This document shows, in pieces, positions 182 to 62,274 of a DNA stretch of 64,000 bases. The translations under genes and the position numbers were made by a program. Origin of the DNA: a virus. The first letter of the stretch is position 1. Each line of letters starts with the position of its first letter. Under the pieces are notes generated by a model that saw only the letters and a program-made list of their open reading frames with translations, ran no database searches and was not told the origin of the DNA. Where the stretch lies: positions 20,546 through 84,545 of the IMG/VR virus record IMGVR_UViG_3300044710_000137, one strand, 5' to 3'.

Positions 182-268
182 CGGGCATGCGGTAGGAGTT
201 GCCCGACACCCCAGCGTTCACCCATTGGCCTGACTTAACCCCGCAACAAACCGCCCGAAGCCCACCTA
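182..268 (-). repeat. family B element
   Basis: minus strand GGTGGGCTTCG...GGCCAATGGGTG...CCGCATGCCCG. Confidence 0.8.
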
Positions 269-315
269 TTTATAATTCCCTTCCCCTGTATTTCACTGTG
301 TAAGTAGAACTGTGT

Positions 316-648
316 CTATTGAGATTTCCGTCCGGACAAGAAGTGCGCGGTGGTCTCCTCTATTTGCTCGGGGGATGCCTGCGTCGGTCCAACTATAGTT
401 CGCGGCGCACCCAGACCGAGCTTCGATTCAATATCCTCTTGAATGGCGCGCATTTCTTCCGGCGTCGGTCTTCTCTTCCACATTTGCATGAAGGCCATGC
501 GGACCTCCGCTCCCACCGCCTTCATCGCTGGCGTGACGACGCACTTATTCCCCGTGTCCAGATGGAAGCAGGCTGGTTGTAATGTCTGATCTGCGCCTGA
601 GACATCCGGGTGGTGTGGAATCGCATGGATACCGATTATCTTCGCCAT
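316..648 (-). CDS. hypothetical protein
   Basis: 110-aa ORF with an AAGG RBS-like sequence; flanked by two B-family elements. Confidence 0.6.
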   Translation of the reverse strand: MAKIIGIHAIPHHPDVSGADQTLQPACFHLDTGNKCVVTPAMKAVGAEVRMAFMQMWKRRPTPEEMRAIQEDIESKLGLGAPRTIVGPTQASPEQIEETTAHFLSGRKSQ

Positions 649-658
649 CTATCAGCCT

Positions 659-750
659 TTTGTGAGCCTCGATTTACTTGTCCTCTCACGTTGCCATCGG
701 GGAACTGTAGCGCGCTTATCAGTCATGCGAAATCTCCCGCATGCCCGCCT
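659..750 (+). repeat. family B/C hybrid element
   Basis: TTGTGAGCCTCG...GCCATCGGGGAACTG (C-like)...CCGCATGCCCG (B-like). Confidence 0.8.
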
Positions 751-980
751 GGGGGATTGAGCGGCAGTTCAGCGACGTCCGGCAGCTCATACCGCGTGAA
801 GTGGGAATTGCCGCTATTCAGCCGGTTCATAAAATCCAGGTGGCGCCTGAAGTCCACCGACCGCGATCCGACTTCGCGGAGGATGGCGCCCCCGGCTAGA
901 CCCAACTGCCAGATCAGTCGCTGGTAATCCGCGCGGGTCATCTGGAGGATGACTTCATCGCCGTTTTCGGTGTAGGTCAT
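723..980 (-). CDS. hypothetical protein (likely start MTYTENG)
   Basis: ATGA overlap with the stop of the J-domain gene. Confidence 0.5.
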   Translation of the reverse strand: MTYTENGDEVILQMTRADYQRLIWQLGLAGGAILREVGSRSVDFRRHLDFMNRLNSGNSHFTRYELPDVAELPLNPPGGHAGDFA

Positions 981-2933: not shown

Positions 2934-3048
2934 GACGGCGGGCGGGAGTCGAACCCGCGCTGGCCGCGAAGGAGCTTCCGGCTGCCCCCGCACGGCCTTG
3001 ACCTTGGTTCGTAGCCAAGCGCTCTGAAATCCACTGAGCTACCGCCGC
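2934..3048 (-). tRNA. tRNA-Arg(ACG) with a 44-nt variable region
   Basis: acceptor GCGGCGG/CCGCCGT; D stem GCTC/GAGC; anticodon arm CTTGG-CTACGAA-CCAAG; T arm GCGGG-TTCGACT-CCCGC; no encoded CCA. Confidence 0.85.
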
Positions 3049-4495: not shown

Positions 4496-4849
4496 ATGCC
4501 CCTCGTTCCCAGCTTCGACGATCTACTCCGGAAAATAGACGGGCGCATCGACAAATTTCTGGAGCCGCCTTACGACAAATACCTCCAACCCGCCGAAGGG
4601 CACCTGGAAGTGGGTCTGCTGCGGCAGGATCTATTGGCCTCAATAGGCGACGATATCGACGAGTACAACGCCGGTGCGTTCGTGGATATCGAACTAGAAG
4701 CCGAACCCCGCGCCGACGGATGGGATTTGAGATGCAGATTTCATAAAAACTGGGCACCGCGCCACCTGGAAAAGAAGGACGGCTGGACACAGGCTCTCAT
4801 AAACCAACTGGAACGGATCATCAACGAACTGCCTGGGGAGGGTCAATAA
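4496..4849 (+). CDS. hypothetical protein
   Basis: GGGAGG RBS; adjacent in operon. Confidence 0.6.
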   Translation: MPLVPSFDDLLRKIDGRIDKFLEPPYDKYLQPAEGHLEVGLLRQDLLASIGDDIDEYNAGAFVDIELEAEPRADGWDLRCRFHKNWAPRHLEKKDGWTQALINQLERIINELPGEGQ

Positions 4850-4881
4850 ATGTCGGTAGATCTACCCCGCGACAAATGGGA

Positions 4882-4920
4882 CCCAGCGCGGGACGCGGCG
4901 GCGGCACGCGCGGCATCAAC
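4882..4920 (+). repeat. family A hairpin element
   Basis: CCAGC...GCGGCATCAAC. Confidence 0.9.
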
Positions 4921-4948
4921 CCCTAAAGATTTTCAGGATGGTGAATAA

Positions 4949-5164
4949 ATGTACTTCACCCTTGAACTGAATGGAAAAAGAGAAATGGTAAAAGCCAGGA
5001 AAGGAATCTCTATCGGTCAAGTAACTCAACAAGCCTTCGGACCAACGGATAAAGACGCGCGAGTAGTCATCGCCACAAATCATCGGGATACGGCCCTCGG
5101 TGCTCTGTGTAAATGCTGGCCGCTATTCGATGAGCATAAGGAGGCTCATTATGGAAGTGCTTAA
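4949..5164 (+). CDS. hypothetical protein
   Basis: start directly after an A element. Confidence 0.5.
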   Translation: MYFTLELNGKREMVKARKGISIGQVTQQAFGPTDKDARVVIATNHRDTALGALCKCWPLFDEHKEAHYGSA

Positions 5165-5717
5165 ATTGCAAACGAACGTGCCGGTTCAGGTGGCATTCAA
5201 ATACCCCACCGGCAAGCCCTGCGACGGCCTGAGCGGCCCGCAAAAGATGTTCACCCTCATAGACGGCCGCATTCTCTTTTTATCGGTGCCGGCGGCTGAG
5301 CGGATCGAGCAGCAGCTCGGGGCGTTGGGGGTAGGAATCGGCGATGTGGATATATGCAAAGCGGAAGTCAGGAACGGCAACCGCAAAGGGATCGAGTATC
5401 AGGTCAAGCGGGTAAATCCACCCGCTCCACAAGACAACGGCGCGAACGGAGTCAAGCCGCCCGCGCCGCCTACGCCAGTTTCGCAACCGGCGCCTCGCTC
5501 AGATGGACAATCCAATGGTAACGCAACCAACGGGCATGCGGCCAATGGGAATGGCGCGAAAAGCAAATTAGGTACGGTTCTCTGCGAGGTCATCGACGCC
5601 TGCCACCAGGGAAGGCAGCACGCCAAGGATATCGGCTACGAAATGCCGGTATTCAACGGCGACGAGATCGTACGGATGGTCAATACGGTCATGATCCAGA
5701 ATGGAGGCTCCCGATGA
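5151..5717 (+). CDS. hypothetical protein, possibly a recombination or ssDNA-binding partner of the nuclease
   Basis: AGGAGG RBS; low-complexity linker; coupled to the PD-(D/E)XK gene. Confidence 0.55.
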   Translation: MEVLKLQTNVPVQVAFKYPTGKPCDGLSGPQKMFTLIDGRILFLSVPAAERIEQQLGALGVGIGDVDICKAEVRNGNRKGIEYQVKRVNPPAPQDNGANGVKPPAPPTPVSQPAPRSDGQSNGNATNGHAANGNGAKSKLGTVLCEVIDACHQGRQHAKDIGYEMPVFNGDEIVRMVNTVMIQNGGSR

Positions 5718-6517
5718 GCGCCGCGGCCGTTATCCCCATTACTACCGGCGTGGCCGATATTCTCTCGCCATCCCAGGTGAGCACCTTCCGCGACTGTGAG
5801 GCCCGCTGGGCGTACAAGTACCTCATAGGCCTCCCGGACCAGTCGAGCCCCGCCTTGGCCCTGGGAACCGCCGTAGACACGGCTATAAAAGCGACGTGGC
5901 ATCACAAACTGGACACCGGCATCGACCTACCCGTCGACGAGCTCGTGGAAATCTTTGCGGCCAAGTGGCTGGAAGAATCCGCGGAAGTGGAATTCACCCC
6001 CAAACAGGACAAAACCGAAATGGCCGCTCAGGGTGCCACCATGATCGATATCTACATGCGGGAAGCCGAACCAGCCATCCACCCCCGCGATGTAGACCTG
6101 GAGGTCCGGGGCAAGATCGCCGGCGTCCAGGTGCGCGGCTTCGTGGACCTGATCGACATTTCCGGCCGGGTAATTGAATTGAAGACTGCCGGCCGGACGC
6201 CATCGAATATCAGCCCCAACCACGCCTTCCAGTTGGCCACCTATGCACAACTGGCTCCGGATGTTAGCCCGCAAATGCGGGTGGATACTCTGGTCAAGCT
6301 GAAGAAACCCAAACTGGTGCAGATCGAGCACGAAATCACGCTGCCCGATTACCACTACCTAAGGTCCAGCTACCCCCTCGTGCAAGAAAAAATGCGCGAG
6401 GGTTTATTTGATTGCAACCGGAATAGTTGGCTTTGCCGTAGGGGTTCCTGCAGTTACTGGCAACGTTGCGAAGCCGAGTACGGCGGAATTGTGCCCGGCG
6501 GGGATGGTGACGAATGA
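5714..6517 (+). CDS. PD-(D/E)XK nuclease (RecB/Cas4-like exonuclease)
   Basis: LSPSQ...C, G.VD....IELKT, QLATY and a C-terminal Cys cluster. Confidence 0.88.
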   Translation: MSAAAVIPITTGVADILSPSQVSTFRDCEARWAYKYLIGLPDQSSPALALGTAVDTAIKATWHHKLDTGIDLPVDELVEIFAAKWLEESAEVEFTPKQDKTEMAAQGATMIDIYMREAEPAIHPRDVDLEVRGKIAGVQVRGFVDLIDISGRVIELKTAGRTPSNISPNHAFQLATYAQLAPDVSPQMRVDTLVKLKKPKLVQIEHEITLPDYHYLRSSYPLVQEKMREGLFDCNRNSWLCRRGSCSYWQRCEAEYGGIVPGGDGDE

Positions 6518-7892: not shown

Positions 7893-8314
7893 ATGCTATC
7901 AAACTTATCTTGGACCTTCACAAGCACGACGGCGCCGATCCAGTATCAAAGCTCCCCGGCCTCTGGGAACGCAAACTCGACGACCGGTGGACGTTCTGGG
8001 TAAACGGCCACATGGAACCGCTACCCGTTCCGCACGATGCGGGCGCCCCGGAAATGCGCGTGCTGCCCGGTGAATGCTACGTCGAATACAACGGCTGGCC
8101 GGCTGCCACATTTTCGATAATCTGCCCCGGAGATGGTATTTTCGCCGCTGGCTCAGCCGCCAACTACCACACGTTCTGTGCGGCACTCGAAGCAGCCCTA
8201 TTGTCACCCATCTGTACCAGCGGAACTCCCCCGACAGCCAAGCCGGGCTCAGCTCCGGGTCTAACTGGCGATTTCCAACGCCGCAAAGCTCACAAGCAAA
8301 AAGGAGTGGATTGA
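7889..8314 (+). CDS. hypothetical protein
   Basis: MNAIKLIL start with AGGAAGG upstream. Confidence 0.6.
   Translation: MNAIKLILDLHKHDGADPVSKLPGLWERKLDDRWTFWVNGHMEPLPVPHDAGAPEMRVLPGECYVEYNGWPAATFSIICPGDGIFAAGSAANYHTFCAALEAALLSPICTSGTPPTAKPGSAPGLTGDFQRRKAHKQKGVD
8216..8295 (+). repeat. family C element
   Basis: ACCAGCGGAA...CGACA...CAGCTCC...GCGATT...AAGCTCACAA. Confidence 0.85.
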
Positions 8315-10465: not shown

Positions 10466-10792
10466 TCACCCACCCGCGGTCATGGTCTTCACTTGGCGCT
10501 TGGCAGCCTTGGCCCGTTTCTGCGCGGCCGCGCGGAGCTTCTCTTTGTGCGCTTCGGTTAGCGGGGCCCTCACACGGGTTACGTGGACCGTCGGCACGGA
10601 AGCTGTCCCGCCCAGCACCTGGTGATCGACTGCATTCCATGTGTTTGCGATCCCCACGATAATCGCACCGGCGAGCATAGCCCGCTGGCTGTCGGATAAC
10701 TGGCGCTGGCAGGTCAAGTAGATTGCCTCGGTGGTTGGATCCAAGCGAGGGGTATTGATTGATAGAGCTGGCTTCTTTGGTTTGTTTGGCAC
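10466..10792 (-). CDS. small basic putative nucleic-acid-binding protein
   Basis: C-terminal LTEAHKEKLRAAAQKRAKAAK. Confidence 0.5.
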   Translation of the reverse strand: MPNKPKKPALSINTPRLDPTTEAIYLTCQRQLSDSQRAMLAGAIIVGIANTWNAVDHQVLGGTASVPTVHVTRVRAPLTEAHKEKLRAAAQKRAKAAKRQVKTMTAGG

Positions 10793-10835
10793 TTGATTCT
10801 CCCTGAGGGACAGGGTAACGCAAAATCATTATAGG

Positions 10836-10922
10836 CTGGCGAGCTTCGGGCTTTTGGCGCCCACGCGCGATGGGCAAATGGGTGAGCGAATGGCTGTCGC
10901 GCATCACCTACCGCAGGCCCGG
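10836..10922 (+). repeat. family B element
   Basis: TGGCGAGCTTCG...GGCAAATGGGTG...CCGCAGGCCCGG. Confidence 0.85.
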
Positions 10923-46741: not shown

Positions 46742-46743
46742 AG

Positions 46744-50427: not shown

Positions 50428-50434
50428 GAGAACT

Positions 50435-50989: not shown

Positions 50990-50999
50990 AATGGAAGCT

Positions 51000-51398: not shown

Positions 51399-51402
51399 AG
51401 GG

Positions 51403-51492
51403 TCTGGAGCTTCGAGCCTTACCCCTCCATCGACCTTGCGTTGCACCTCGTCAGTAATTGCCCTGCCAGGCACCCTCTACCGCATGCCCGGC
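51403..51492 (+). repeat. family B element (divergent middle)
   Basis: TGGAGCTTCG...CCGCATGCCCGG. Confidence 0.75.
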
Positions 51493-51544
51493 TTGACGAA
51501 TCAATAAGCACCATCCCCACGCCCCACATTTCAAAGGAATCCCC

Positions 51545-51889
51545 ATGCAGGCCGCTAATGAGTTCGTGATCGCCTCCGGTACCGCCCAGCAATTGTGCAC
51601 AAGCTTATCCAGCCCCACCCGCTACGTCACCCGCCTCATCATCCAATGCCAACCGGCAGCGGGCGACGGCTTGATCTACGTGTTCAATGGCGTGCCGATC
51701 GGCGTAACCCCGACCATCTCGACCTTCCCCTATATCACTCTGGCAGCGGGAAGCGCCGCTGCGGGCAGCGATGAATACGATGACCGCCTGGATACCGGAG
51801 ACACGTCCAATATCGACCTGTGCAGGATCTGGATCGACGGATCGCACACGGGGGATGTGGTGACGTTTTCGCCTAACGTGAAAGTGTAA
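51545..51889 (+). CDS. putative virion protein
   Basis: AAGGA RBS; small beta protein. Confidence 0.55.
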   Translation: MQAANEFVIASGTAQQLCTSLSSPTRYVTRLIIQCQPAAGDGLIYVFNGVPIGVTPTISTFPYITLAAGSAAAGSDEYDDRLDTGDTSNIDLCRIWIDGSHTGDVVTFSPNVKV

Positions 51890-51978
51890 CGAAGGGGCTA
51901 CGGGCTGGGTCCTGGGTGCCGGGGCGTGCCCCTTTGCCATTCCTAATAAATTAGGAAATTCCCATCGCTCCCGTGCCC

Positions 51979-52057
51979 ACCAGCGGAATCCGCCCGACAC
52001 CCAAAAACCACTCAGCTCCGAGAATCGCTTGCGATTGAAAGCGCCGGAAGCTCACAA
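51979..52057 (+). repeat. family C element
   Basis: ACCAGCGGAA...GAAGCTCACAA. Confidence 0.85.
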
Positions 52058-52085
52058 GCCCAAGACTTCTTCAAAGGATTATTAA

Positions 52086-52739
52086 ATGCCCGAGATTTCT
52101 CCTCTAAACGTCATCACCCAAAACAAGGATACAAGAGCCATCCCCGTGGTTCAGAACAGAATCCCGATTCCAGTTCCCCCAGTAGTCCATACGGAATTTC
52201 CATGCTATGCCTATTACCAAGGCGCAGCGGACGTTGCCGCCAAGACCGTCAAAACCAAGGAAGCATTGGCGCTCCTCGGTCCGGACTGGGGTCCCTTCCC
52301 GTTCACTACGGAGAAGTTCGAACGAACCGGCCCGGAGATCCCCGGCGTATCCTTCACCACCGAACCGGTAGGCACCGAATTTTCCCGCTACTTCTACAAC
52401 CAGCGCGCCAAGAACGTGCCGGAAAGAATCGTTGCCGACCCCATCGCGGCCGAGAAGCTGGGCAAGGATTGGGGACCGCTGCCGTTCAGCGAGGAACGCC
52501 TGGCGCTACTTCAGGATCTCGACAAAAAGGAAGCCGAGCTGAAGGCCCTCGCGCCGGCTGGTCCTCAGGCGCCCGAAACGAAACCGCCCGAAACCGAAAC
52601 GAAGCCGGCCGCCGGCGAAATGAAACCGGTTGAGACCAAGCCGGAAACCGCCCCGGCCGAGACGGAAGCACCGAAGCCGGAAGCGCCGCGGCCCCTCCCG
52701 CCGCCGATTCTGCCCAAGATCCCTAACGGGAAGGGGTAA
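52086..52739 (+). CDS. head-associated protein with two EF(P)..Y...LG.DWGP.PF repeats
   Basis: internal repeat and Pro/Glu-rich tail. Confidence 0.6.
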   Translation: MPEISPLNVITQNKDTRAIPVVQNRIPIPVPPVVHTEFPCYAYYQGAADVAAKTVKTKEALALLGPDWGPFPFTTEKFERTGPEIPGVSFTTEPVGTEFSRYFYNQRAKNVPERIVADPIAAEKLGKDWGPLPFSEERLALLQDLDKKEAELKALAPAGPQAPETKPPETETKPAAGEMKPVETKPETAPAETEAPKPEAPRPLPPPILPKIPNGKG

Positions 52740-53144
52740 GCGCTCAGCGGCGGCGGCTGTCCAGAAGCTTCCCGACTTCGGCGCGGATGGCCGTGCCGAT
52801 CAGCTCCTGGAGATCCACATCCTGAAGGGCCTTGCGCGCGTGATCCGTAACCTCGTTTTGGAGCGCGTTAGCCATAATCAGGTTCACGGTTTTCGCTATC
52901 TCCCCCGCGTAGTCGAAGTGCTGGACCGCGTACGATACTTCGGCCTCGATCCTGGCGTGGATCGACGGCATTTCCCTCTCGATGGCCCGCGCAACGGAGA
53001 CTGCCATAGCGCCCAAGCCGCCGTCGTTGACCTCAAAGTGCTTCGCTTGGGATGCCACTGGTTCGGGATTCAGGAAATGCCCCGGCTCCATCTCGGGGCC
53101 CAGAACCACAAGCCCCTCCTTCTCGGCGTTCTTGCCAAATAGTT

Positions 53145-53879
53145 TCACGCCGCATCCTTGAGCGTCTTCCTGCACGCCGCGCAGAGCACCTGCACCCGCA
53201 TGGGCTTGCCGCGCCAGCTTTTGAGAATCTTGGGCTTCGCCTCTCCACCGCAGGAGCGGCAGACGCTCAGGTCAATCGAGGCTAAGGCGGCCAGTCTGGC
53301 GCGTTCGTCGGTGAAGGGCAGCGGCCCCCAGTCCGGGCCCAGCGCCGTGGATTCCTCGGCCGTGTTCACCGTTCGCTCCTTGATGCCGGGGTCGAGTTGG
53401 TGATAGCGGGCGGCGGGGTATTCGCTTCCCGGCTCCGATGGCTGGGTCTGTGGCTTGAACTGTACGGCGGCCACTTCCCGAATAGAAACCGTTGCGGTCT
53501 GGCCGTAACCTTGGCTTGCGGCGAACACGCCATCGTCAATTTCCGCTAGATGCTCGGGAAGCTTCAGCGCCACCTGGCGGATTTCCTCTTCGAGCGCGAT
53601 GCACACGTCCCGATATTCGGACTGCAGAAATTCGGTCATCGCGCGGGCCATGTCTTCCATGTCGCCCTTGGTTCCGTCGAGGGTGACTTCCAACTCTGGT
53701 TCGAGTACCAGTGTGTATGGCCACGTTCCCATGTCGCGCCGGTATTGCTCTGCGGTGTAGCCGTCTTTTCCGATTTGCTTCCTTGGATCGAGACTGCCTT
53801 CGGCGTATTTCAGGACGAATTTGCGCGAGCGAAGAACCTCCAGGCGGGAAGCGAGTTTCTGCAGTCTCTCTGTGTCCAT
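53145..53879 (-). CDS. hypothetical protein with one EYP...LGPDWGPLPF repeat and a zinc ribbon
   Basis: shares a domain with 52086-52739. Confidence 0.6.
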   Translation of the reverse strand: MDTERLQKLASRLEVLRSRKFVLKYAEGSLDPRKQIGKDGYTAEQYRRDMGTWPYTLVLEPELEVTLDGTKGDMEDMARAMTEFLQSEYRDVCIALEEEIRQVALKLPEHLAEIDDGVFAASQGYGQTATVSIREVAAVQFKPQTQPSEPGSEYPAARYHQLDPGIKERTVNTAEESTALGPDWGPLPFTDERARLAALASIDLSVCRSCGGEAKPKILKSWRGKPMRVQVLCAACRKTLKDAA

Positions 53880-53921
53880 TTCTCTTCAAGTATAGACTCT
53901 TTGGAGCCCATAGAGTATAAG

Positions 53922-54010
53922 TTGGTGAGCTTCGCAAGCTGAAGCCGCCAGCCTCTCACTGGTAAAACGGGTCAGCGCCGCACTGCCGCGCAACTCCTCC
54001 CGCATGCCCC
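53922..54010 (+). repeat. family B element
   Basis: TTGGTGAGCTTCG...CCGCATGCCC. Confidence 0.85.
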
Positions 54011-54043
54011 ACTGCCGCCGTTATTGACATCCTCCGAACGTCT

Positions 54044-54124
54044 ACCAGCGGAAGCCGCACGACAAGACAGCGGTCTCCAGTTCCCCGATGGCATCGCGCG
54101 ATTGACAGCGCATCGAAGCCACAA
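54044..54124 (+). repeat. family C element
   Basis: ACCAGCGGAA...CGAAGCCACAA. Confidence 0.88.
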
Positions 54125-54143
54125 CTCCTAAAAGACTTTTTCC

Positions 54144-54911
54144 ATGCCTGCAACAACCCCACAAGCCGTAATTACTAATGCTTTGACTTTACTCCCCGGT
54201 ATTTTATGGCCAGGTAGTTCTCCTTCTACCATCATGTCTGCCGATGGATTAGTAAAGCTGAACGACATGATCGACTCCTGGTCAACCGAACGGCTGATGA
54301 TCTACGGCTATTCGACGCAATCCTATGCCATGGTCTCGGGGACAAACGCCTACACCTTTGGAACGGGAGGAACCTTCACCCCCCGGCCCATCGCCATCGT
54401 AGCGGCCAACATCATCACCGACGCCACCCTGAAACTGCGCTACGCCATGCGGCTGATCACCATCGACGAGTGGAACGCCATCCGCGACCGCCAGGCCGGA
54501 TCGCTTCTGCCCAAGGTTCTGTACAACGACGGCCAATATCCCTTGTCCACGCTCTCGATGTGGCCAACTCCGAATTCTTCAACCAGCCTATTGGAACTTT
54601 ACACCTGGCAGCAGATCGCAGACTTCGCGGCGCTCAATTCCACCTTCGACCTCCCCATCGGGTACGAACGGGCCATTACGTACAACCTGGCGCTCGATCT
54701 CGCTGGGGAATATCGCGTCTCCGTGCCAGCCGAAGTCTTGAAGGTGGCCATCGAGTCCAAGGCCGACCTGAAGGCCCTCAACGCCCCCCCGACGCACATT
54801 CCCGGCATGGCCCAGGAACAGATGGCGCAAGCGCAGGTAGGCGAAGCCTCCCAGCCGAACGCCGGTGCTCCACCGCCGCCTCCAGGAAGCATGCAGGGCA
54901 GCGTCACGTAA
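54144..54911 (+). CDS. head-tail adaptor (P22 gp4-like), paralogue 1
   Basis: I..AL...G......S....DGL..LN.M.DSW; P..LY.D; P.GYE.A..YNLA..LA.EY. Confidence 0.75.
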   Translation: MPATTPQAVITNALTLLPGILWPGSSPSTIMSADGLVKLNDMIDSWSTERLMIYGYSTQSYAMVSGTNAYTFGTGGTFTPRPIAIVAANIITDATLKLRYAMRLITIDEWNAIRDRQAGSLLPKVLYNDGQYPLSTLSMWPTPNSSTSLLELYTWQQIADFAALNSTFDLPIGYERAITYNLALDLAGEYRVSVPAEVLKVAIESKADLKALNAPPTHIPGMAQEQMAQAQVGEASQPNAGAPPPPPGSMQGSVT

Positions 54912-55004
54912 CGGGCCGGGGGCTGGGGCCCGGGGTCAGGGACTGGGGTTTACTTTTTACCATTCCTAGCCAACTAGGAATCCATCCCCACCGCCGATGT
55001 GACC

Positions 55005-55085
55005 ACCAGCGGAATCGTCACGACAGACAACCGCTCTCCAGCTCCCCGATGACAACGCGCGACTGACAGCGCATCGAAGCCACAA
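55005..55085 (+). repeat. family C element
   Basis: ACCAGCGGAA...CGAAGCCACAA. Confidence 0.88.
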
Positions 55086-55103
55086 CTCCTAAAAGACTTC
55101 ACC

Positions 55104-55853
55104 ATGGCGACAACTCCACAAGCTGTAATCACAAATGCCCTCGTAGTATTAGGCGTCACCTTCCCAGGTCAAACACCCAGTTCTTCGATGCTAAATGATG
55201 CCTTCACCCGCTTGAACAACATGCTCTTGTCCTGGTCCGTAGACAGGGGCATCATCTACGGCATTCTGAAACAGGATTTTCCTTTAACCACCACGGTAAA
55301 CAGCTACACTATCGGAGCCACGGGAACCTTCGCCGGCACGCGCCCCAACTCCATCGTCGCCGCTCAAATCCTGGTAGGCCCCTTGGGACTGCGCTCGAAA
55401 CTGCGTTTGATCACCACCGAGGAATGGGACGCCATCGAGGACCAGGGCGCCACCTCGACAGTTCCCGAACTCCTGTACGACGACTACGAATACAATAATT
55501 CCACGTTGTACTTCTGGCCCACCCCCACGTTCGGCTCGGGATCGTACTACGTCGAAATCCAGACCTGGCAGGAACTCGAAACCTTTTCCACCCTGGCCGA
55601 CGACTTCGACATGCCTCCCGGTTACGAAGAGGCCGTGACGTACAACCTCGCCCAGGTGCTCTCCATGGTCTATGGACGAGCCATGTCCCAGGAAGCCATG
55701 GGAATCGCGCAAATGTCGCTGAACAACCTGAAAACGGTCAACGCGCCGCCCACGCACATCTCGGGTATGGCGGAGGAAGCCGTGGCCCGCGGGCAGGTAG
55801 CGCAGGGCGCCGGGCCGATGCTCGGAGACGCGGTAATGCCGATTAAACGGTAA
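55104..55853 (+). CDS. head-tail adaptor (P22 gp4-like), paralogue 2
   Basis: same motifs as paralogue 1. Confidence 0.75.
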   Translation: MATTPQAVITNALVVLGVTFPGQTPSSSMLNDAFTRLNNMLLSWSVDRGIIYGILKQDFPLTTTVNSYTIGATGTFAGTRPNSIVAAQILVGPLGLRSKLRLITTEEWDAIEDQGATSTVPELLYDDYEYNNSTLYFWPTPTFGSGSYYVEIQTWQELETFSTLADDFDMPPGYEEAVTYNLAQVLSMVYGRAMSQEAMGIAQMSLNNLKTVNAPPTHISGMAEEAVARGQVAQGAGPMLGDAVMPIKR

Positions 55854-56631
55854 ACCTGCAAAAATAGGCTTACGATGAAACCCACGGGTTTGGGTGGGCG
55901 TGTTCAGCGCCAGTCCGCTGGTGTCGCATAGCGGGAGCGGTCACCCGTCTATCCCGGGTCGAAATTCCGGGGCCAGTCCAGCACGCGTGCAAGACCTCAC
56001 GTCAGCGGCCCGGTGAACGCGACTCCGGGCCGCGTAATTTAGCAGTCGCACGCGAAGCGCTGTCATCCTTCATGGATAATCCCCCGCGCGCCGCATCGCA
56101 TACAGATAGCCGCCGTGGTAACGAATGCTGGAAAGATGATGGCGAATTGGTCGCTGCCGCACTTGCATTTCATCGGCGATTCGCTACCATCCCAATCCCC
56201 GCCATGATCGTGAACGAAGGGATAGGCGTCGTCTATCTGACTCGGGAAGGAATCGCGGCGCCGCTCGGCTAGTGCCACCAGCTCGGGATCTTTGGAATAG
56301 AGGCCGGTCAAAATTCCCCTAATGGGCGAGCCTATAGCTCCGCTCGAAAACTGCCTTCAGTTCCAAATATTTGTAGCCGTCGTCCCTCACTACATAGTAA
56401 TCGCCGACCCTGGGCGTCATTCGCGCCAAGAGGGGAGCGCCCACTAGGACCTCACTCCCATCGCTCAACCGCAACGGGAGGCAGGTAACACCCCTGCCGA
56501 ACGCCACTAGGTCGCCTGGATCGATGTCGGCGATAACAAAGGCCTCTACCTCGACGGGATTGGCGATGCACTTCACGCCTCAACTCTACCATTCCTGATC
56601 GGCTGAATCCATCCCCACCACCGATGTGACC

Positions 56632-56710
56632 ACCAGCGGAATTCTCACGACACCCAAGAACGGCTCAGCTCCGAGAGTCACGCGCGATTGAAGCGCCGCA
56701 AAGCTCACAA
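56632..56710 (+). repeat. family C element
   Basis: ACCAGCGGAA...AAGCTCACAA. Confidence 0.88.
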
Positions 56711-56727
56711 GCCCTAAAAGTCTTCAG

Positions 56728-57522
56728 ATGTCAACTAATACTCTTACTCCTCCTTCAACTCAACCAGTATCTCTCCCTACTGTAAGGGTATCCGACATCA
56801 TCTACACAGGCTATCGTTTAGCAGGTATTTTAGCCGACCCAGGCGTAACCCCCTCCCCGGAAGAAACCACAGACGGATTCAACACCTTAAACGCCATGTT
56901 GGACGACTGGAACTCCCAGCGCTTCATGATCTTCACCATCATCCGCTATTTGTTCAGCTTCGTCTCAAACCAGCAGTCCTATCAGATTGGACCCGGCGCC
57001 GCGGATTGGAACTTTCCCAGGCCCCCAAGAATTGAAGGCGTTTCCGTGGTACTCGAGAACGATCCCACATTGCCATTGGAACAGCCCATCGCCATGCTGT
57101 CCTGGCAGAACTTCCAGAGGATCAGCGTCAAAACCATCCTTTCACCCATCCCATACGCCTGCTATTACGACCAGCAAAACCCCATCGGCAACTTGTGGTT
57201 CTATCCTGTTCCGGAAGGCCCGCTCAACTACGTCGCGCTTTATGTGTGGCAGACGATAGCCGCCATCCAGACCGTCAACGATAAAATCATCTTCCCGCCG
57301 GCGTACCTCCGGTGCATCGAATACAACCTGGCCGTTGAACTCGCCGCGCGCTTCCCACTTCGACAGAAGATGTCGCCTATCACGGTGAAGATAGCCGAGC
57401 AGTCCATGCGGAACGTAAAGAGCTTGAACATGCCGACGCTCGATATGACGATTGATCGGGCAGCGTTGCCGGGAAGACAAGGAATTTATGACTGGCTCAG
57501 TGACTCGCTCAGGTGGCCGTAA
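56728..57522 (+). CDS. head-tail adaptor (P22 gp4-like), paralogue 3
   Basis: GIL...G.TP..EE..DG...LN.MLD.W; FPPAY...I.YNLA.ELA. Confidence 0.75.
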   Translation: MSTNTLTPPSTQPVSLPTVRVSDIIYTGYRLAGILADPGVTPSPEETTDGFNTLNAMLDDWNSQRFMIFTIIRYLFSFVSNQQSYQIGPGAADWNFPRPPRIEGVSVVLENDPTLPLEQPIAMLSWQNFQRISVKTILSPIPYACYYDQQNPIGNLWFYPVPEGPLNYVALYVWQTIAAIQTVNDKIIFPPAYLRCIEYNLAVELAARFPLRQKMSPITVKIAEQSMRNVKSLNMPTLDMTIDRAALPGRQGIYDWLSDSLRWP

Positions 57523-57619
57523 ATAAAGCCTGTTCAACGCTTTACATTGCGTGGACAGTTAGAGCATAATCAAAGAGTGAGGCCGCGCTGTTATCAGCAA
57601 CGCAGCCCCGCAGATCAAG

Positions 57620-57636
57620 ACCTCTGGAGGGTCTCG
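57620..57636 (+). promoter_or_regulatory. RBS-sequestering hairpin upstream of the endonuclease
   Basis: AGACCTC-TG-GAGGGTCT traps GGAGG. Confidence 0.6.
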
Positions 57637-57638
57637 AA

Positions 57639-58469
57639 ATGCGACCCAATTCTACCATCACCACCAAGCGCTGCCGCGGCTGCAACGAAACGAAGGACAT
57701 CCAAAACTTTTACTGGCGAGAGGACCGCCAAACACATTTCACGCTTTGCATTGTCTGCTGGAACAAACATGCCGAGGATCGCCGCAGGGCTAGCCGCGAA
57801 AAGGCTCTCACCTACCCGGGTGGCGAGAAGCGCTGCTGGCGCTGCAAACAGTCCAAGCCCTACGCGGACTTTCCGCGTTGCTCCACGAATAGTTCCGGAT
57901 TCAGCAAGGCGTGCCGTCCTTGCAACGCTATATTACACAGTCTTTGGTACGAGAAAAATAGGCTAGCGCAGCCGGAGCCGCCGGCAGAAAAACGCTGCCG
58001 CTGTTGCAAAGAGAACAAAGCGCGCGTTGAGTTTAGTATCGACCGCGCTTCCTTGGATGGCCTGAAACAATGGTGCCGCGAATGCTCCGCCCGCGCTTAT
58101 CAGGCGCGCAAGCGCCCACTCCTTTATTCCAGGCCGGCCAATATTCGGCATGATTACGGACTCTCGACCGAGGGATACGACGCCATCATTCAGCGCCAGA
58201 ATAACCGCTGCGCAATCTGTGGCAAAACCCCTCCCAGGCTCGTAGTGGACCACGATCACAAGACAGATGCGATCCGGGGGATGCTCTGCTCGCCCTGCAA
58301 CCAATTTCTTGCTGTAGTCGAAATCGCCGGAATGGTCGAAAGCGCCCAGCGCTATCTCATTCTGAGTAAAATCACCGGCGACTTGCGGCCCATCGTCCAA
58401 CCGAACGGCTTGCCGCACCCGCGCCGGGACGCGTACCTGAAGAAGATCAAGATGGGCAAGCCGGCCTAA
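57639..58469 (+). CDS. free-standing endonuclease VII-family endonuclease with N-terminal zinc fingers
   Basis: three KRC..C...K....F repeats; YGL...Y......Q..RCAIC...VDHDH....RG.LC..CN. Confidence 0.9.
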   Translation: MRPNSTITTKRCRGCNETKDIQNFYWREDRQTHFTLCIVCWNKHAEDRRRASREKALTYPGGEKRCWRCKQSKPYADFPRCSTNSSGFSKACRPCNAILHSLWYEKNRLAQPEPPAEKRCRCCKENKARVEFSIDRASLDGLKQWCRECSARAYQARKRPLLYSRPANIRHDYGLSTEGYDAIIQRQNNRCAICGKTPPRLVVDHDHKTDAIRGMLCSPCNQFLAVVEIAGMVESAQRYLILSKITGDLRPIVQPNGLPHPRRDAYLKKIKMGKPA

Positions 58470-58478
58470 CAGTTCGTT

Positions 58479-58790
58479 ATGCGTCTGCTTCTTTTGCTTT
58501 TGCTCATACCCCTGGCAGCCCAAGACGTGCGCGTGATCCACCTCTCGCCGGCGGATGCAAAGATCCTCGCTCAGATCGGCAACGCCAAATTGCAAGCCGA
58601 CGAAAACTGGCGCCAGGCCGAGAAATACGTCCGTTGGAAGTACGCGGCCGAGCCGGGCATCGCACAAGCTGGTGACGCGCAGGTAGACGTCAAGAATCCC
58701 AGGAACGGCTGGGAATACGGCGTTCAGTTCTCGCAGGACTTCAGTGTCATCGTTCCGAAGCCGAAGCCTTGCGAAGACGATGAGCATTAA
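58479..58790 (+). CDS. small secreted protein
   Basis: MRLLLLLLLIPLAA-Q. Confidence 0.6.
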   Translation: MRLLLLLLLIPLAAQDVRVIHLSPADAKILAQIGNAKLQADENWRQAEKYVRWKYAAEPGIAQAGDAQVDVKNPRNGWEYGVQFSQDFSVIVPKPKPCEDDEH

Positions 58791-58807
58791 GGGGCGCTGC
58801 TATCCAT

Positions 58808-59305
58808 TCAATCGGACCGTTTGCCGGTGCGCGGGGTGGCATCCGGGTCTTTGGATGCGTCGTACACGGAAAGAATAGCCGCCGCAAGCGCGTTCAGGCC
58901 GCGCTGGGTATCCACATGATAGGACCCAACCCCGAAGCCTTTGTACCACTCGCGCGGTGATGGACAGCCACAGTGACCGGCCACGCGCACCTCGCGCCCT
59001 AATTCAGCATGCAGTTTCTCCGCTACTTCGACGGGCAATCCAGGGCCCTCGGCGCACCAGTAGTACCAAGCACGCTTAAAGCTCCACATCGATAAACTCC
59101 CGAATGCCAGCGAGGGAACCTCGCCTTGAATAACGTTCCAAAGCATCGCTACTTCAATTCCAGCTTCTCGCAGCTCAGCCTCGGCTGTCGCGGTCACTTC
59201 CGCAATCGTGGCAGGGTCGAACGGCTGCGGCCGCGCCAGATTCGGCAAGTTGTTTTCGCCAACACATGACGGCGAGACGCCCGCAGAACTGATGGTCAAG
59301 CTCAT
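58808..59305 (-). CDS. conserved hypothetical protein (antisense insert)
   Basis: W.F.RAWYYW; RVAGHCGCPSP.EW; YHVDTQ.GL. Confidence 0.65.
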   Translation of the reverse strand: MSLTISSAGVSPSCVGENNLPNLARPQPFDPATIAEVTATAEAELREAGIEVAMLWNVIQGEVPSLAFGSLSMWSFKRAWYYWCAEGPGLPVEVAEKLHAELGREVRVAGHCGCPSPREWYKGFGVGSYHVDTQRGLNALAAAILSVYDASKDPDATPRTGKRSD

Positions 59306-59329
59306 ACCCCCAGTCTAGCTAAATCTGAA

Positions 59330-59369
59330 ACCAGCGATCCGGCGCGGAAGCGACGGGCGCGGCATCAAC
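59330..59369 (+). repeat. family A hairpin element
   Basis: near-identical to the 3387 copy. Confidence 0.9.
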
Positions 59370-59394
59370 ACCTCATTTTCCTTTTGCCCCTTCA

Positions 59395-62181
59395 ATGTCA
59401 ATTCAGCAAGACAGTCAGCTCCTTCAGTTCAAATCCATAAGTCAATCCAAGACAGGACTTTTTCAATTCATTGGCCCCAGCTATCAGTCCTGGAGCCCCG
59501 ATCAGGACGATCAAGAACTCCTGAACATGTACGTGGAAATGGATGAGGCGGGAACCGGTAAAAACGTAAAAGCCCTTTACGGAACACCAGGCATTCAAAA
59601 TTTCTGCTTCCTTCCTCCCGGCCCTACCAGAGGAATATACGCAGGAGAAAACCGCCTCTTCGTGGTATCCGGTCCTAACCTCTACGAAGTATTCGCAGAT
59701 ACCAGTTTCACGAACCTCGGAGCAATCGCTAACGACGGAAACCCCGTCTACATGTCCGCCAATGGAACGGGAACCCAGCTTTGCATCGCAGCCGGATATT
59801 TAGCCGCAACCACAAACTACACCGACATCGCCATCAACAGCGGTAACGACCTCGAAATCAGCAGCGCCCTCAACCCCTTCACGGCACTGTTGAACGCCGG
59901 ACAAACCCTGACTATCTCGGGCGGAACGGGATTCACCCCAGGCAATTACACCGTCGAATACGTGGACGGCAACGGCAACGCCTTCCTGAATGCGTCTCCC
60001 GGCGCGGCTTCATCCACTGGAGGAACCGGCAGCCTGGTTTACGGGCCCGGCGGCTATTTCTATTGCGATCCCGGAACCGGACCCGTGGCGCAGCGCTTCT
60101 CGGTCGCCTATACGGACCTGGCCATCAGCGCGGGATCCAGTTCAGTCGTTTCGAGCGCCGCCCAGCCCTTCGCGGCGGATACCGACGACGGGTACACCCT
60201 CGTCATCAACGGAGGCGTCGGCTTCACCCCCGGCACTTTCACTATTGTTTCGGTGGACGGATCCGGCAACGCCACCTTGAGCGGATCCGCCGGCACGGAA
60301 GGATCCATCGCAGGAACGGGAATCGAGTACCTGAGCTACGTCCCAGCGGTTCAACTGGCCTATCTGGATACGTTTTTTGTGGCCCAGGCGGGATACAATT
60401 CGCGTCTTTTCTACCTCTCCGCGTCCGACGACGGCACTATGTGGGACGCCCTGCAGGTGGCCCAGAAGGAGTCGTATCCAGACAATATCACCGCGATCCT
60501 GAGCGACCACGAAGAATTGTGGCTCTTTGGATCCCAACAGTCCATCGAGGCTTGGTCGAACGTGGGCGGCGCCGTCTTCCCGTTCGCGCGCAACGATTCG
60601 GCCGAAATGCACTACGGCTGCGAAGCCCCCTTCTCGCCCATGCGGTTCATGTTGGGTTTTGCTTGGTTAGCCAAGGACCAGGTGCGCGGAGGCCGCATGG
60701 CGTTCTACGCCCAAGGATTCGTGCCCGTCCGGATCTCGAACCATGCGGTCGAATCCATCTGGAACACTTACCCCTACGTGGCGGATTGCATCGCCTACAG
60801 CTACGAGGAAAACGGCCACCCATTCTACGTTTTGAACTTCGCCAGCGCCAACGCCACGTGGGTATATGACGGCCTTACCCAGATGTGGCACCAGCGCGCC
60901 TGGTACAACGGCGTGGGATCCGGAGGCGTCCAGGAAGTTTCCATCAACACTGCGGGGTCCGGATACGTGCAGGTCTCGGGTGCCCTTACCGGGTTTGCCC
61001 TCGTTTCGCCGGGTTTTGGCTATGCGGCGGCCGCCGGCGCTCTGCTTTACGGCGATCCTCCATACGTGCCCTACGTCACTATCGACGTTGCGGGAACGGG
61101 ATATCAGGCCAACGAAGTCGTCGCCCTCGCGGGAGGAACCGGGGGAACCATCCTCATCCAAACCGTCAACGGGAGCGGCGTCCCTACGGCCATTGTCGTG
61201 TGGAATCCCGGCAGCGGCTATTCCGCGACCACGGGCCACGCTACCTCCGGAGGAAGCGGTACCGGGCTAACCGTCAGTATTGGCGCGGTATCGACTGGAG
61301 CCAGCGTTGCCACGGTCGTATCCGCGGTGGGTTCCGGCGCCACAATACAGGTCGATACGGTAGGCCCTTATGGAGCGGTTACGGCCGCGCACATCTTAGC
61401 CGCGGGATCCGGGTATGGCATCGCCTCGGGCGTTCCGACAGTTGGCGGGTATGGCCTCGGCTTCTCGATCGCCATCACCGCTACGGCGAATACTTTCCCC
61501 CAAGTAACTATCAGCCAGGTGGGATCCGGCGACAATTGCGTGCTGCAGATCAACTCCGTCAACTCGGCGGGTGGGGTGGTTTCATTGTCGATCATCAGCC
61601 CGGGAAGCGTCTACACGGTCGCTAACGGGGTTGCTACGACGGGCGGAGCGCCAGGAACGGGGCTCACGGTCAATATCGGAGCCGTTTCGTCTACGGGAGC
61701 GGGAACCAATGGGCGGCAAAGGCAATCCTTTCATGGATACGTGAACCTTGGAAATGGCGATACCCACTTCGTTTCTGACTGGGAGACAGGTCAGGTTTTT
61801 ACGCAATCCGTGAATTATTACACCGACGCCGGCGTGCAGATCCAGCGCATCAGAATTGCCCCGCATATTGCCGAGGAAGACACGCTTCAGTTCTTTCACC
61901 GCTTCAGGCTGGATCTCGAAACCGGGAACGCGGCGATGAACAACATTACCCTGGACTGGTCGAGCGATGGTGGACATACTTTTCATGGATACAATTTAGC
62001 CCCAGCGTTAGGGTCTCCTGGCGTAAACCAATTTCAATTTTCAGTGGACTGGCTACCTTTAGGATCGGATGGAACCAGAACATTCAAAGTTAAGATTACC
62101 GACCCAGTGAAGATTGCCATTGTAAATGCTTACTTGGATGTTACGGCTGGGACAGTGCCTGCCGGAACACCTGGACTTTAG
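59395..62181 (+). CDS. tail hub / DNA stabilisation protein (P22 gp10-like) with inserted repeat domains
   Basis: N.Y.E, L..TPG, E..PD.I, LWLFG....E.W.N.G, R.S.HA.E, TWVYD..T..WH.R, L.WS.DGG.T. Confidence 0.85.
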   Translation: MSIQQDSQLLQFKSISQSKTGLFQFIGPSYQSWSPDQDDQELLNMYVEMDEAGTGKNVKALYGTPGIQNFCFLPPGPTRGIYAGENRLFVVSGPNLYEVFADTSFTNLGAIANDGNPVYMSANGTGTQLCIAAGYLAATTNYTDIAINSGNDLEISSALNPFTALLNAGQTLTISGGTGFTPGNYTVEYVDGNGNAFLNASPGAASSTGGTGSLVYGPGGYFYCDPGTGPVAQRFSVAYTDLAISAGSSSVVSSAAQPFAADTDDGYTLVINGGVGFTPGTFTIVSVDGSGNATLSGSAGTEGSIAGTGIEYLSYVPAVQLAYLDTFFVAQAGYNSRLFYLSASDDGTMWDALQVAQKESYPDNITAILSDHEELWLFGSQQSIEAWSNVGGAVFPFARNDSAEMHYGCEAPFSPMRFMLGFAWLAKDQVRGGRMAFYAQGFVPVRISNHAVESIWNTYPYVADCIAYSYEENGHPFYVLNFASANATWVYDGLTQMWHQRAWYNGVGSGGVQEVSINTAGSGYVQVSGALTGFALVSPGFGYAAAAGALLYGDPPYVPYVTIDVAGTGYQANEVVALAGGTGGTILIQTVNGSGVPTAIVVWNPGSGYSATTGHATSGGSGTGLTVSIGAVSTGASVATVVSAVGSGATIQVDTVGPYGAVTAAHILAAGSGYGIASGVPTVGGYGLGFSIAITATANTFPQVTISQVGSGDNCVLQINSVNSAGGVVSLSIISPGSVYTVANGVATTGGAPGTGLTVNIGAVSSTGAGTNGRQRQSFHGYVNLGNGDTHFVSDWETGQVFTQSVNYYTDAGVQIQRIRIAPHIAEEDTLQFFHRFRLDLETGNAAMNNITLDWSSDGGHTFHGYNLAPALGSPGVNQFQFSVDWLPLGSDGTRTFKVKITDPVKIAIVNAYLDVTAGTVPAGTPGL

Positions 62182-62183
62182 GT

Positions 62184-62274
62184 TTGGTGAGCTTCCCGCG
62201 CGTAGCGCCCGCGAACATCCAGGCCAATGATCCGCGCTTGTCTGTTGCGCGCGCCCTGCCGCATGCCCGGCTGG
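62184..62274 (+). repeat. family B element
   Basis: TTGGTGAGCTTC...GGCCAATG...CCGCATGCCCGG. Confidence 0.85.

Follow-up and report, generated by a model that had tools for sequence, protein, structure and literature searches.

A repeated non-coding module in two mirror-image forms at the gene boundaries of an IMG/VR phage genome

Introduction

The IMG/VR virus record IMGVR_UViG_3300044710_000137 contains repeated elements of two subtypes, named B and C, that recur between the genes of a phage, and the question raised by these elements is whether they are laid out according to the strand of the genome or according to the genes beside them, and what role such a layout might serve. The analysis was performed on a stretch of 64,000 nucleotides, referred to as the window, which corresponds to bases 20546-84545 of the 84,545-bp record (CheckV completeness 97%); positions are given in window numbering unless genome numbering is indicated. 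Repeated elements at gene boundaries offer one of the rare ways of seeing how phages of uncultured soil bacteria arrange their expression and exchange modules.

As described below, B and the reverse complement of C are one family of non-coding modules placed in opposite orientation, and the rule for their position is one of gene boundaries and not of genome polarity. On the basis of the analysis as a whole, we tentatively suggest that the modules may be protein-recognised cassettes at gene boundaries, which would set or insulate expression units and would also provide portable homology for exchange. Several features are unusual in this family: the module is long and of fixed length, its two mirror forms have different positional roles, it swaps with a family of hairpins, and phages with almost no genes in common carry it at the identity that is seen within a single genome.

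Identification of the B and C elements

Family members were defined by nhmmer profile searches using a B model and a C model, and later an enlarged model. In the window, these searches returned 11 B-type and 8 C-type copies, that is, the same 19 elements that had been reported in the first-pass annotation of this DNA. They also agreed with that annotation in placing all 8 C copies and 10 of the 11 B copies in the same genomic orientation, on the + strand. The whole 84.5-kb genome contains about 25 copies, with nhmmer E-values from 1e-7 to 1e-34, comprising 16 B (14 on the + strand and 2 on the - strand) and 9 C (all on the + strand).

The conserved heads are enriched as well. The 13-mer of the B head, with up to two mismatches allowed, was found 13 times in the window (1.71 expected), a number that was reached in none of 100 shuffles; 10 of these matches are members, and those at 10544, 27867 and 56950 were rejected by nhmmer. 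For the 10-mer of the C head, with up to one mismatch, 12 matches were found versus 4.82 expected; 8 are members, and the matches at 19223, 49824 and 55913 on the - strand and at 59626 on the + strand are not. The copy at 51407-51527 was first seen as a 3' half, and was recognised with the enlarged model as a divergent full-length copy.

Organization of the module

The module is about 100-135 bp long, and the C element about 80-95 bp. The conserved module head is TTGGTGAGCTTCG (CGAAGCTCACAA on the other strand), with an A/T-rich hexamer of the TATAAT, TAAAAG or TAAGGA kind on its outer side, and the inner module end is GCTGGT/ACCAGC, which faces the intergenic space. The distance between the terminal blocks is nearly constant, in agreement with the fixed length claimed at first pass: from GCYTC to CCGCA, 15 of 16 B copies measure 68-71 nt (for the other one, the regular expression caught an earlier CCGCA), and from GCTTC to CCGCTGG it is 65-69 nt in 9 of 9 reverse-complemented C copies.

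That B and C belong together had been proposed from the copy at 659, which has a C-type middle and a B-type end, and several lines of evidence bear this out. Both ends are common to the two subtypes, and the 659 copy is matched by the B model on the + strand (E 1e-7) and by the C model on the - strand (E 2.5e-4). Matches across subtypes, on the opposite strand, were also obtained in G002, a complete 62.7-kb phage with terminal repeats, where B copies are matched by the C model with E-values of 8e-9, 1e-6 and 2e-5, and C copies by the B model with 1.9e-6 and 1.1e-4; two of the G002 copies are hybrids of the same kind as the 659 copy. Moreover, the A/T-rich sequence that flanks the B head externally (AAAATCATTATAAG type) corresponds, in reverse complement, to the one that follows C (CTATAAAGATTTT type), and the B head and the C end form inverted repeats of 13 nt, or of about 20-27 nt if the A/T-rich flank is included. 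The mirror relation can also be observed in the copy at 39375, which occupies a C position, is an inverted B-like sequence, and is the partner of the B copy 1 kb upstream; the duplex of the 38339 and 39375 arms (genome 58884/59920) has an energy of -86 kcal/mol, compared to -52 +/- 6 in shuffled controls. The CCATCCCCAC-like extensions that had been noted near 51510, 54982 and 56609 are all present in the sequence, and since those before two of the C copies look like a B tail, they suggest an ancestral B-then-C arrangement.

Across 17 B copies from 4 sources, 15 columns are invariant. The best pairwise identity within the genome is 0.82, and the identity between genomes is equally high (0.76-0.80). 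Because the divergence is confined mostly to the spacers and the blocks are invariant, it points to constraint and not to neutral decay after a burst. As judged from the sequences, the identity pattern appears to be that of maintained sites, and not that of a recent burst of a selfish element.

Location of the elements relative to genes

Genes were called with our own simple self-trained open reading frame (ORF) caller, and their positions are approximate. By these automatic calls, a co-oriented start within -21 to 97 nt was found for 7 of the 9 C copies of this genome. For the eighth (54044), the ORF list contains an ORF at 54144 that starts 18 nt downstream, and the ninth (11441) is followed only by an ORF of 38 aa. 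Co-oriented starts were also found for both C copies of G002, on the minus strand, and for 4 of 6 C copies, on both strands, of G085, a complete 53.5-kb phage that is largely unrelated. For the three phages together, the automatic caller gives a co-oriented start within -23 to 97 nt in 13 of 17 C copies, and hand reading, which counts the 38-aa ORF after 11441, places the end of the C core 5-28 nt before a co-oriented ATG in 11 of 17.

The B copies are mostly found on the other side of genes. Nine of the 16 start between -6 and 39 nt past the stop of a co-oriented gene. Six others (genome 20450, 21196, 22993, 31370, 58874 and 74459) are reversed, so that 3-43 nt separate the head from the start of a gene written on the opposite strand, which is the position of C, and the remaining copy has no called neighbour. 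A co-oriented start is located 5-45 nt past the B tail in six copies (window 38339, 46049 and 51407; genome 1200, 1851 and, on the - strand, 19594), and the same can be observed in G002 and in the phage fragment G003. One rule covers all of these cases: the neighbouring gene is on the side of the head and its A/T-rich hexamer, and the interior of the spacer is on the side of the ACCAGC end. The late genes are split into units that start with C, or with a hairpin of another family termed A, and end with B; for example, the C at 39375 is followed by the scaffold gene, the coat gene and a 347-aa gene, and then by the B at 43165.

The earlier claim that the subtype tracks the genome strand and not gene direction stands in part. 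In this genome, the copies at 10836 and 11441, which had been described as lying inside a minus-strand operon, are indeed located between minus-strand ORFs and written on the + strand, and the same is true for the 2454 copy and for the genome 20450 copy, which straddles the window start; altogether, 5 of 7 copies in minus-gene neighbourhoods remain on the + strand. The bias also persists over the whole genome, where 23 of 25 copies are on the + strand, a modest excess over the share of called genes on that strand (76 of 105, 72%; P(>=23 of 25) = 0.017). The claim does not hold, however, for the two minus-written B copies, which follow minus genes, for the C copies of G085, which occur on both strands and follow their genes, or for the 659 copy, which when read on the minus strand sits 10 nt before the ATG of a minus gene. 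Furthermore, B and C being mirror images, the + strand carries members of the family in both directions (14 versus 9).

These data bear directly on the possibility that the elements are genome-polar and would be read on a single DNA strand when the phage DNA is replicated, packaged or ejected. The strand excess and the + copies among minus genes would be expected in such a case, and 6 of the 7 G002 copies are likewise located on the majority strand. An additional argument comes from a tract of about 125-150 nt outside each B or C head (e.g. 43040-43164 and 54126-54250), which is A/T-rich, CpG-poor and one-sided: its G+C is 0.40-0.50 and it contains 1-11 CpG per 125 nt, versus 12.7-13.1 at element-free gene ends, the inner side of the elements is at background, and the asymmetry is consistent, the tract being C-poor on the head-first strand for both B and C. 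This tract is, however, weak in G002, the GC skew shows no switch that correlates with the elements, no common single-stranded DNA (ssDNA) fold was found, and the opposed directions of B and C, together with the gene-following copies in G085 and on the minus strand here, are not what a polar signal would give. The earlier suggestion of a structured ssDNA or RNA element tied to such a directional process is not supported, as no common structure was found, C lies on both strands in G085, and B is found in both orientations relative to neighbouring genes in two genomes; we consider a genome-polar role highly improbable.

Structure, coding and promoter analysis

Another possibility is that the elements act as sense-strand RNA in polycistronic late transcripts, where B would be a processing, stabilising or attenuating site and C a translation-tuning 5' leader. 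RNase III sites in T7 and repetitive extragenic palindromic (REP) sequences in Escherichia coli are analogues of such elements. The placement is compatible with this, as B fills stop-to-start gaps in co-directional late operons in at least 9 of 16 copies, and C stops 5-28 nt short of start codons. The sense strand of C contains little G and is rich in C and A, as in the CCAGCCA and CACCCAG heptad leaders mentioned below. In addition, the hairpins of the B subtypes include the conserved head, and one compensatory change was seen.

The folding analyses, on the other hand, gave no common structure. RNAalifold yielded -0.77 kcal/mol for 17 B copies, with a double change in 2 of 12 pairs, and -0.16 kcal/mol for 12 C copies, with a double change in 1 of 5 pairs. 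The single-sequence fold z-scores of 15 B copies ranged from -3.0 to +1.4; they were below -2 in two copies (32707 and 43165) and near zero in the other 13. The long hairpins that had been reported at 2454 and 43165 can both be read in the sequence, the copy at 43165 being one of the two with z below -2. A cmscan search of the whole window against Rfam (E <= 1) returned two tRNA matches only, and the B and C copies matched no family or self-cleaving ribozyme. Moreover, a position antisense to, or upstream of, the neighbouring gene was found for 6 of 16 B copies in this phage and for 3 of 5 in G002, and these copies are equally conserved (the E-values of copies antisense to local genes are 1e-23 to 1e-32, as good as those of sense copies), and the homology of B to reverse-complemented C is hard to reconcile with two distinct sense-RNA functions. 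We regard a function as sense-strand RNA as rather unlikely. The multi-contact protein site, which was the other reading put forward at first pass, would better fit the invariant blocks at fixed spacing, the free spacers, the lack of a conserved fold and the conserved antisense copies.

Several further candidates were considered and rejected. The reverse complement of B is open in most copies, but in three different frames, and on the + strand a conserved-looking peptide is broken by a 1-nt indel, with the ATG lost in some copies, so that coding was discarded. Hairpin promoters of a virion RNA polymerase were discarded because the 3397-aa protein of this phage is DarB-like and not an N4-type RNA polymerase. 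When compared by eye to the consensus sequences, the B tail did not correspond to a sigma-54 promoter or to one of the extracytoplasmic function (ECF) type, as the invariant ACG misfits the -12 GC and a GGAAC-type -35 element is absent. Likewise by eye, the ends misfit the core motifs of integron attC sites.

Occurrence in other genomes

A search of related phages had been advised at first pass. Among the other phages analysed, the family was found in G002 and G085, which are largely unrelated to this one, and in the relative G003, and not in G084. G002 contains 7 copies (5 B-type and 2 C-type, by nhmmer), although its proteins give just 6 weak matches to those of the present phage (26-52% identity); a B-then-C-then-ATG composite occurs twice in it. 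In G085, 6-7 C-type copies were found; G085 and G086 were among the matches listed in a loose C-pattern scan. G003 is a 15.5-kb fragment of a true relative (~70% DNA identity, structural genes) and contains one B copy. G084, a complete 87.7-kb distant relative that was found by a family-A pattern scan, has no B or C, but about 9 family-A hairpins.

Of the 34 matches returned by an exact-pattern scan of 185,579 species genomes, one proved to be a true copy. This is a single B in the 4514-5818 region of contig DATGGM010000106.1 of a Bryobacteraceae metagenome-assembled genome (MAG), located beside a DUF5681 gene; the contig is otherwise bacterial, with a kinase, an M23 peptidase and an aldo/keto reductase. 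The copy is possibly a phage remnant, and possibly a hint at the host lineage. Within the limited sensitivity of BLAST with one query and the best 10 candidates per genome, no further copies were found in the same MAG or in 80 additional genomes of the family.

Relatives were also sought through the coat protein. Two close relatives are represented by their coat homologues alone, P0001 (87% identity, on a 53-kb contig) and P0002 (81% identity, on a 59-kb contig). A single-protein coat search of viral contigs gave no match, and a coat alignment search gave 80 metagenome loci and 41 viral-contig loci, all with at most 65% identity and none with B or C.

Since phages that are otherwise unrelated carry the family, it looks like a portable gene-boundary control cassette and not like a replication or packaging signal.

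Exchange with family A and composite elements

Families A, B and C have in common the TCTACCAGC flank, the A/T-rich outer flank and the inner end ACCAGC/GCTGGT, and members of these families replace each other at orthologous sites. Three paralogous genes are preceded by C in this phage and by family-A hairpins in G003; in G084, one of four homologues was checked (68509-69264), and it has an A copy about 20 nt before its start. Similarly, the orthologue of the 928-aa gene at 59395-62181 is followed by a reverse-complemented A in G003, and the gene itself by B here. As the same modules are found beside many different genes in several phages, they would also constitute portable homology for the exchange of genes and of the boundary elements themselves.

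Composites of the B-then-C type were found five times in this genome (genome 6405/6747, 31381/31986, 58884/59920, 71958/72524 and 74467/74589) and twice in G002. Their interiors range from 0 to about 0.9 kb, and some contain ORFs on either strand; a Pfam match was obtained for 0 of 10 proteins of these cargo ORFs. When folded, the composite of G002 forms a long hairpin (z -2.4 for the sense strand and -3.7 for the antisense strand).

Such composites are what would be expected of a selfish foldback element resembling a miniature inverted-repeat transposable element (MITE), with B as the left arm and C as the right arm; it would be non-autonomous, insert at A/T-rich boundaries, sometimes carry cargo ORFs, and have passed from phage to phage. 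The terminal inverted repeats of at least 13 nt, the strong pairing of the 38339/39375 arms and the A/T-rich outer flanks agree with this, as do the presence of the family in phages with almost no genes in common and the single copy in a bacterial chromosomal contig, near the DUF5681 and aldo/keto reductase genes. Nevertheless, no target-site duplication was seen at the composites inspected by eye (not exhaustively), many B and C copies are solitary, and there are no near-identical copies (maximum identity 0.82), the spacer-only divergence looking like constraint. A parent insertion sequence was not found, with 1 of the 34 pattern matches being true and 1 of 81 genomes of the bacterial family, the source itself, containing a copy; no transposase was seen among the scanned proteins, and the cargo ORFs have no Pfam match. 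Taken together, a MITE-like origin is possible but unlikely.

The swaps could also be explained if the elements were, together with family A, the recombination sites of a cassette or inversion system, in which a short tyrosine recombinase or a host enzyme excises, inverts or swaps the intervening DNA. Many pairs of facing ACCAGC ends, 100-1000 nt apart, occur along the genome and bracket small genes; some brackets mix B with A or C (63710/64131, and 82729 with an A-like copy), and the ORFs inside the brackets often run against the direction of the adjacent genes. The phage also encodes a 226-aa protein that matches integrase families (PHROG 1, E 1.9e-23). However, tyrosine recombinases are present in all four complete phages, including G084 without B and C, and are ordinary in temperate phages; no recombinase core site, i.e. 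short inverted binding arms around a spacer, was recognised; and the tight link between C and start codons would be left unexplained. In contigs of the two soil metagenome runs that contain the sequence, only breaks or cross-joins at repeat copies were seen, with no inversion, excision variant or empty site, and nothing is concluded from this. We consider such a role improbable. Similarly improbable, in our opinion, is a more inclusive scheme in which A, B and C form a phage-borne cassette system of mirror-image, ACCAGC-joined modules that would be cut, nicked or recombined by the tyrosine recombinase or by a host enzyme, so that bracketed genes or protein domains move or invert, both within a phage and between unrelated ones, and in which the one-sided C-poor, CpG-poor tract would be a mutational scar of repeated single-strand exposure. 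If the modules did prove to be recombination substrates, they would represent a new route of gene and domain shuffling in phages.

It is worth describing family A separately. It comprises about 24-26 hairpins on both strands (window 3387-59369). In some cases the hairpin sequence is part of the reading frame at the N-terminus of a small zinc-ribbon-like protein, and several hairpins are located inside the DarB-like gene. Two inverted A copies enclose, in frame, a small Cys-rich ORF at genome 36019-36246; family A was also observed in L046:9940-11500. The segment between the inverted B-like arms at 38329-39456 is 1.1 kb long and contains two small + ORFs and one minus Cys-rich ORF (39128-39370), which starts exactly at the ACCAGC end.

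Proposed role of the modules

The explanation that we favour, while regarding it as far from secure, is the protein-recognised boundary cassette outlined in the Introduction; its logic would resemble that of the promoter-early stem-loops, and the behaviour of C that of the start-associated sequences, both of which are described below. A module in the C orientation has its head 5-28 nt, or in some cases about 100 nt, ahead of a start codon read in the same direction, and would most likely supply or control the start of expression by providing a promoter-proximal or ribosome-binding context. A module in the B orientation occupies the gap from stop to start, where its most likely role would be to insulate or end the preceding unit. 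The modules would most likely be recognised by a DNA-binding protein, either of the host or common to these phages, that contacts several blocks about 70 bp apart.

A number of observations weigh against this explanation. In the 43000-62900 region, no sigma-70-like sites were found inside B or C (6 in the scan in total, versus 6.5 in shuffles), and no intrinsic terminators consisting of a stem and a T-run (16 in total, versus 19.7). The A/T-rich hexamer may represent a -10 element or a variant Shine-Dalgarno sequence, or it may be neither of the two. Some subtypes have strong local hairpins, with one compensatory change from GCCTC/GAGGC to GCTTC/GAAGC; each of the B subtypes has its own hairpin around the head, without a T-run. 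As no co-oriented gene precedes 6 of the 16 B copies, the ending of the upstream unit cannot fully explain the role of B. The evidence for exchange among close relatives comes from G003 as the sole comparison, over 15.5 kb, and gene order differs there too. Finally, only one protein, of 188 aa (window 5151-5717, + strand), has homologues in all three complete element-bearing phages, and no PHROG or Pfam family was found for it.

The 188-aa protein is nevertheless a lead. Homologues are found in this phage, G002 and G085, and no best match was obtained among the called genes of G084. In the Atlas, it falls into unnamed phage clusters with a weak structural likeness to a Gp3-like domain (TM 0.46, to be taken as a lead only). 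A second lead is a 99-aa protein with a LuxR/GerE-type helix-turn-helix (25556-25855, + strand), which has a homologue in G002 and none among the called genes of G085. Both are candidate trans-acting factors, selected from very small numbers. If the protein-recognised cassette is correct, it would point to a shared regulator, of the host or of a phage, that could be used to link such phages to a host; the one bacterial copy is that in the Bryobacteraceae MAG.

Individual copies and other features of the genome

The sole minus-written B of the window (143-277, E 1.2e-24) is located 39 nt past the stop of the minus gene 316-648; all other copies are written on the + strand. The hybrid with a C-type middle and a B-type end (the copy at 659) spans 651-785 (E 7e-10 with the enlarged B model on the + strand, 2.5e-4 with the C model on the - strand), and when read on the minus strand it ends about 10 nt ahead of the ATG of the same gene 316-648. 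Two B copies are found among minus genes: 2448-2580 (E 3e-23) is antisense to the local genes, with its head 13-19 nt from the start of the minus gene 1890-2435/2441, and 10825-10963 (E 5.4e-32) has its head 33-44 nt from the start of the minus ORF 10466-10792. The B at 38329-38464 (E 2.7e-33), the left arm of the inverted pair with 39375, occupies a divergent junction, 36 nt from the start of the minus gene 38048-38293 and about 22 nt before the + gene at 38491.

The remaining B copies are associated with + genes. Those at 32696-32835 (E 5.4e-28) and 62176-62308 (E 8.2e-25) begin at the stop codons of genes 32235-32699 and 59395-62181, respectively, and that at 43155-43294 (E 4.5e-25, fold z -3.0) begins 23 nt past the stop of gene 42089-43132. 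The tail of 46038-46175 (E 2.7e-31) ends about 5-8 nt before the ATG of gene 46175-46741. The divergent full-length copy (51407-51527, E 7.1e-10 with the enlarged model) lies between genes, 9 nt past the stop of 50991-51398 and about 20 nt before 51545, and 53914-54047 (E 1.9e-26) is the left half of a B-then-C composite ahead of gene 54144.

Among the C copies, three precede the paralogous genes mentioned above: 54044-54125 (E 1.4e-32) is 18 nt upstream of the ATG of paralogue 1 (54144), and 55005-55086 (E 1.8e-33) and 56632-56710 (E 3e-29) are each 17 nt upstream of the ATGs of paralogues 2 (55104) and 3 (56728). A co-oriented ATG lies about 20 nt beyond the end of 8216-8295 (E 1e-27), and + genes start 28 nt downstream of 51979-52057 (E 6.6e-31; gene 52086) and 136 nt downstream of 23117-23197 (E 6.1e-34; gene 23334-23960). 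The C-position copy whose reverse complement is B-like (39375-39456, E 2.7e-23) is located 110 nt upstream of the scaffold gene at 39567, assigned by a PHROG scaffold match. The copy at 11441-11520 (E 1e-31) lies among minus genes, with just the 38-aa + ORF downstream; when read on the minus strand, it follows the minus ORF 11526-11711.

Two other repeats were observed near these elements. A palindrome, TTCCTA-N6-TAGGAA, is found upstream of several C copies (window 51940-51965 and 54960-54990; L046:6700-6745), with one compensatory variant, and occurs twice before the orthologue of the 928-aa gene in G003 (L217, 8730-8784); it resembles an operator. Heptad repeats are found at 40626-40729, 41978-42088, 21321-21365, 35332-35395 and 38465-38490. 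They form long hairpins, (GGTGGCT)n versus (CCACYGR)n, after the scaffold and coat genes, or C/A-rich, G-poor leaders (CACCCAG or CCAGCCA) right before start codons that have no Shine-Dalgarno sequence.

The window has a G+C content of 56-62%. The phage encodes a P22-like portal, a P22-type coat (PF11651), a scaffold protein, the DarB-like protein of 3397 aa (PHROG 10089), a short tyrosine recombinase (18408-19088), an exonuclease and an endonuclease VII-like protein. No close cultured phage was found by megablast, and the portal identity is at most 38%. The sequence is contained in two soil metagenome DNA runs, and none of the runs listed as containing the stretch is an RNA run. A large-terminase homologue is present in two separate ORFs 6.7 kb apart (23969-24697 and 31370-32158), and the N-terminal part of a 518-aa ORF of G084 matches the 242-aa ORF of this phage (50% identity over 244 aa). 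The two tRNA-like genes are at 2934-3048 on the - strand (Rfam tRNA, 50.5 bits), in which about 43 nt are inserted between anticodon stem and T arm, and at 20166-20238 on the + strand, with an 8-nt anticodon loop (ARAGORN 'tRNA-???').

Comparison with known systems

Repeats of MITE and REP type were compared first. Correia elements of Neisseria, and REP sequences or bacterial interspersed mosaic elements (BIME), have ends that can create promoters and processing sites. Like B and C, they are intergenic repeats of about 100-150 bp whose ends are inverted, which occur in either orientation and which are transcribed together with genes. B and C differ in that no target duplication was seen, in lacking near-identical copies and abundance in putative host genomes, and in an interior that in this phage is not a simple palindrome.

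In phages, the promoter-early stem-loops (PeSLs) of T4-type phages are described as composite terminator/promoter cassettes (PMC4122927). Like B and C, they are small repeated non-coding modules at gene boundaries, common to several phages and flanking variable genes, and they were proposed to be expression signals as well as exchange points between otherwise unrelated sequences (PMC4122927). With respect to the flanked genes differing between relatives, G003 shows both element swaps and, at element sites, a changed gene order, over its 15.5 kb only. PeSLs have a recognisable early promoter and a terminator stem-loop, whereas in the 43000-62900 region no sigma-70-like promoter or stem with a T-run was found in B and C, the B subtypes having a hairpin around the head; B and C are also longer (100-135 bp), of fixed length and present in two mirror-image variants.

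The start-associated sequences (SAS) of Cluster K mycobacteriophages are reported to be an asymmetric repeat of 11-19 copies in nearly always one orientation, located a few bases upstream of the start codons of genes of different families, not present in the host genome and with unknown function (PMC3203893). The SAS is 13 bp long and includes a Shine-Dalgarno core, and the extended form (ESAS) adds a 17-bp inverted repeat, for which the authors argue that it is the site of a DNA-binding protein because the arms do not co-vary as RNA (PMC3203893). C resembles the SAS in being an asymmetric repeat just upstream of co-oriented start codons. It differs in its length of about 80-95 bp, its several blocks and its unrelated sequence, in which the SAS consensus with the Shine-Dalgarno core is absent, and in having a mirror partner, B, behind stop codons and in being common to unrelated phages.

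The stoperators of L5-like (Cluster A) mycobacteriophages, which are mentioned in PMC3203893, were also compared. Many asymmetric sites at gene junctions, with an orientation related to transcription, are a feature they share with B and C. Stoperators are 13-bp repressor sites recognised by a phage protein, whereas B and C are ten times longer.

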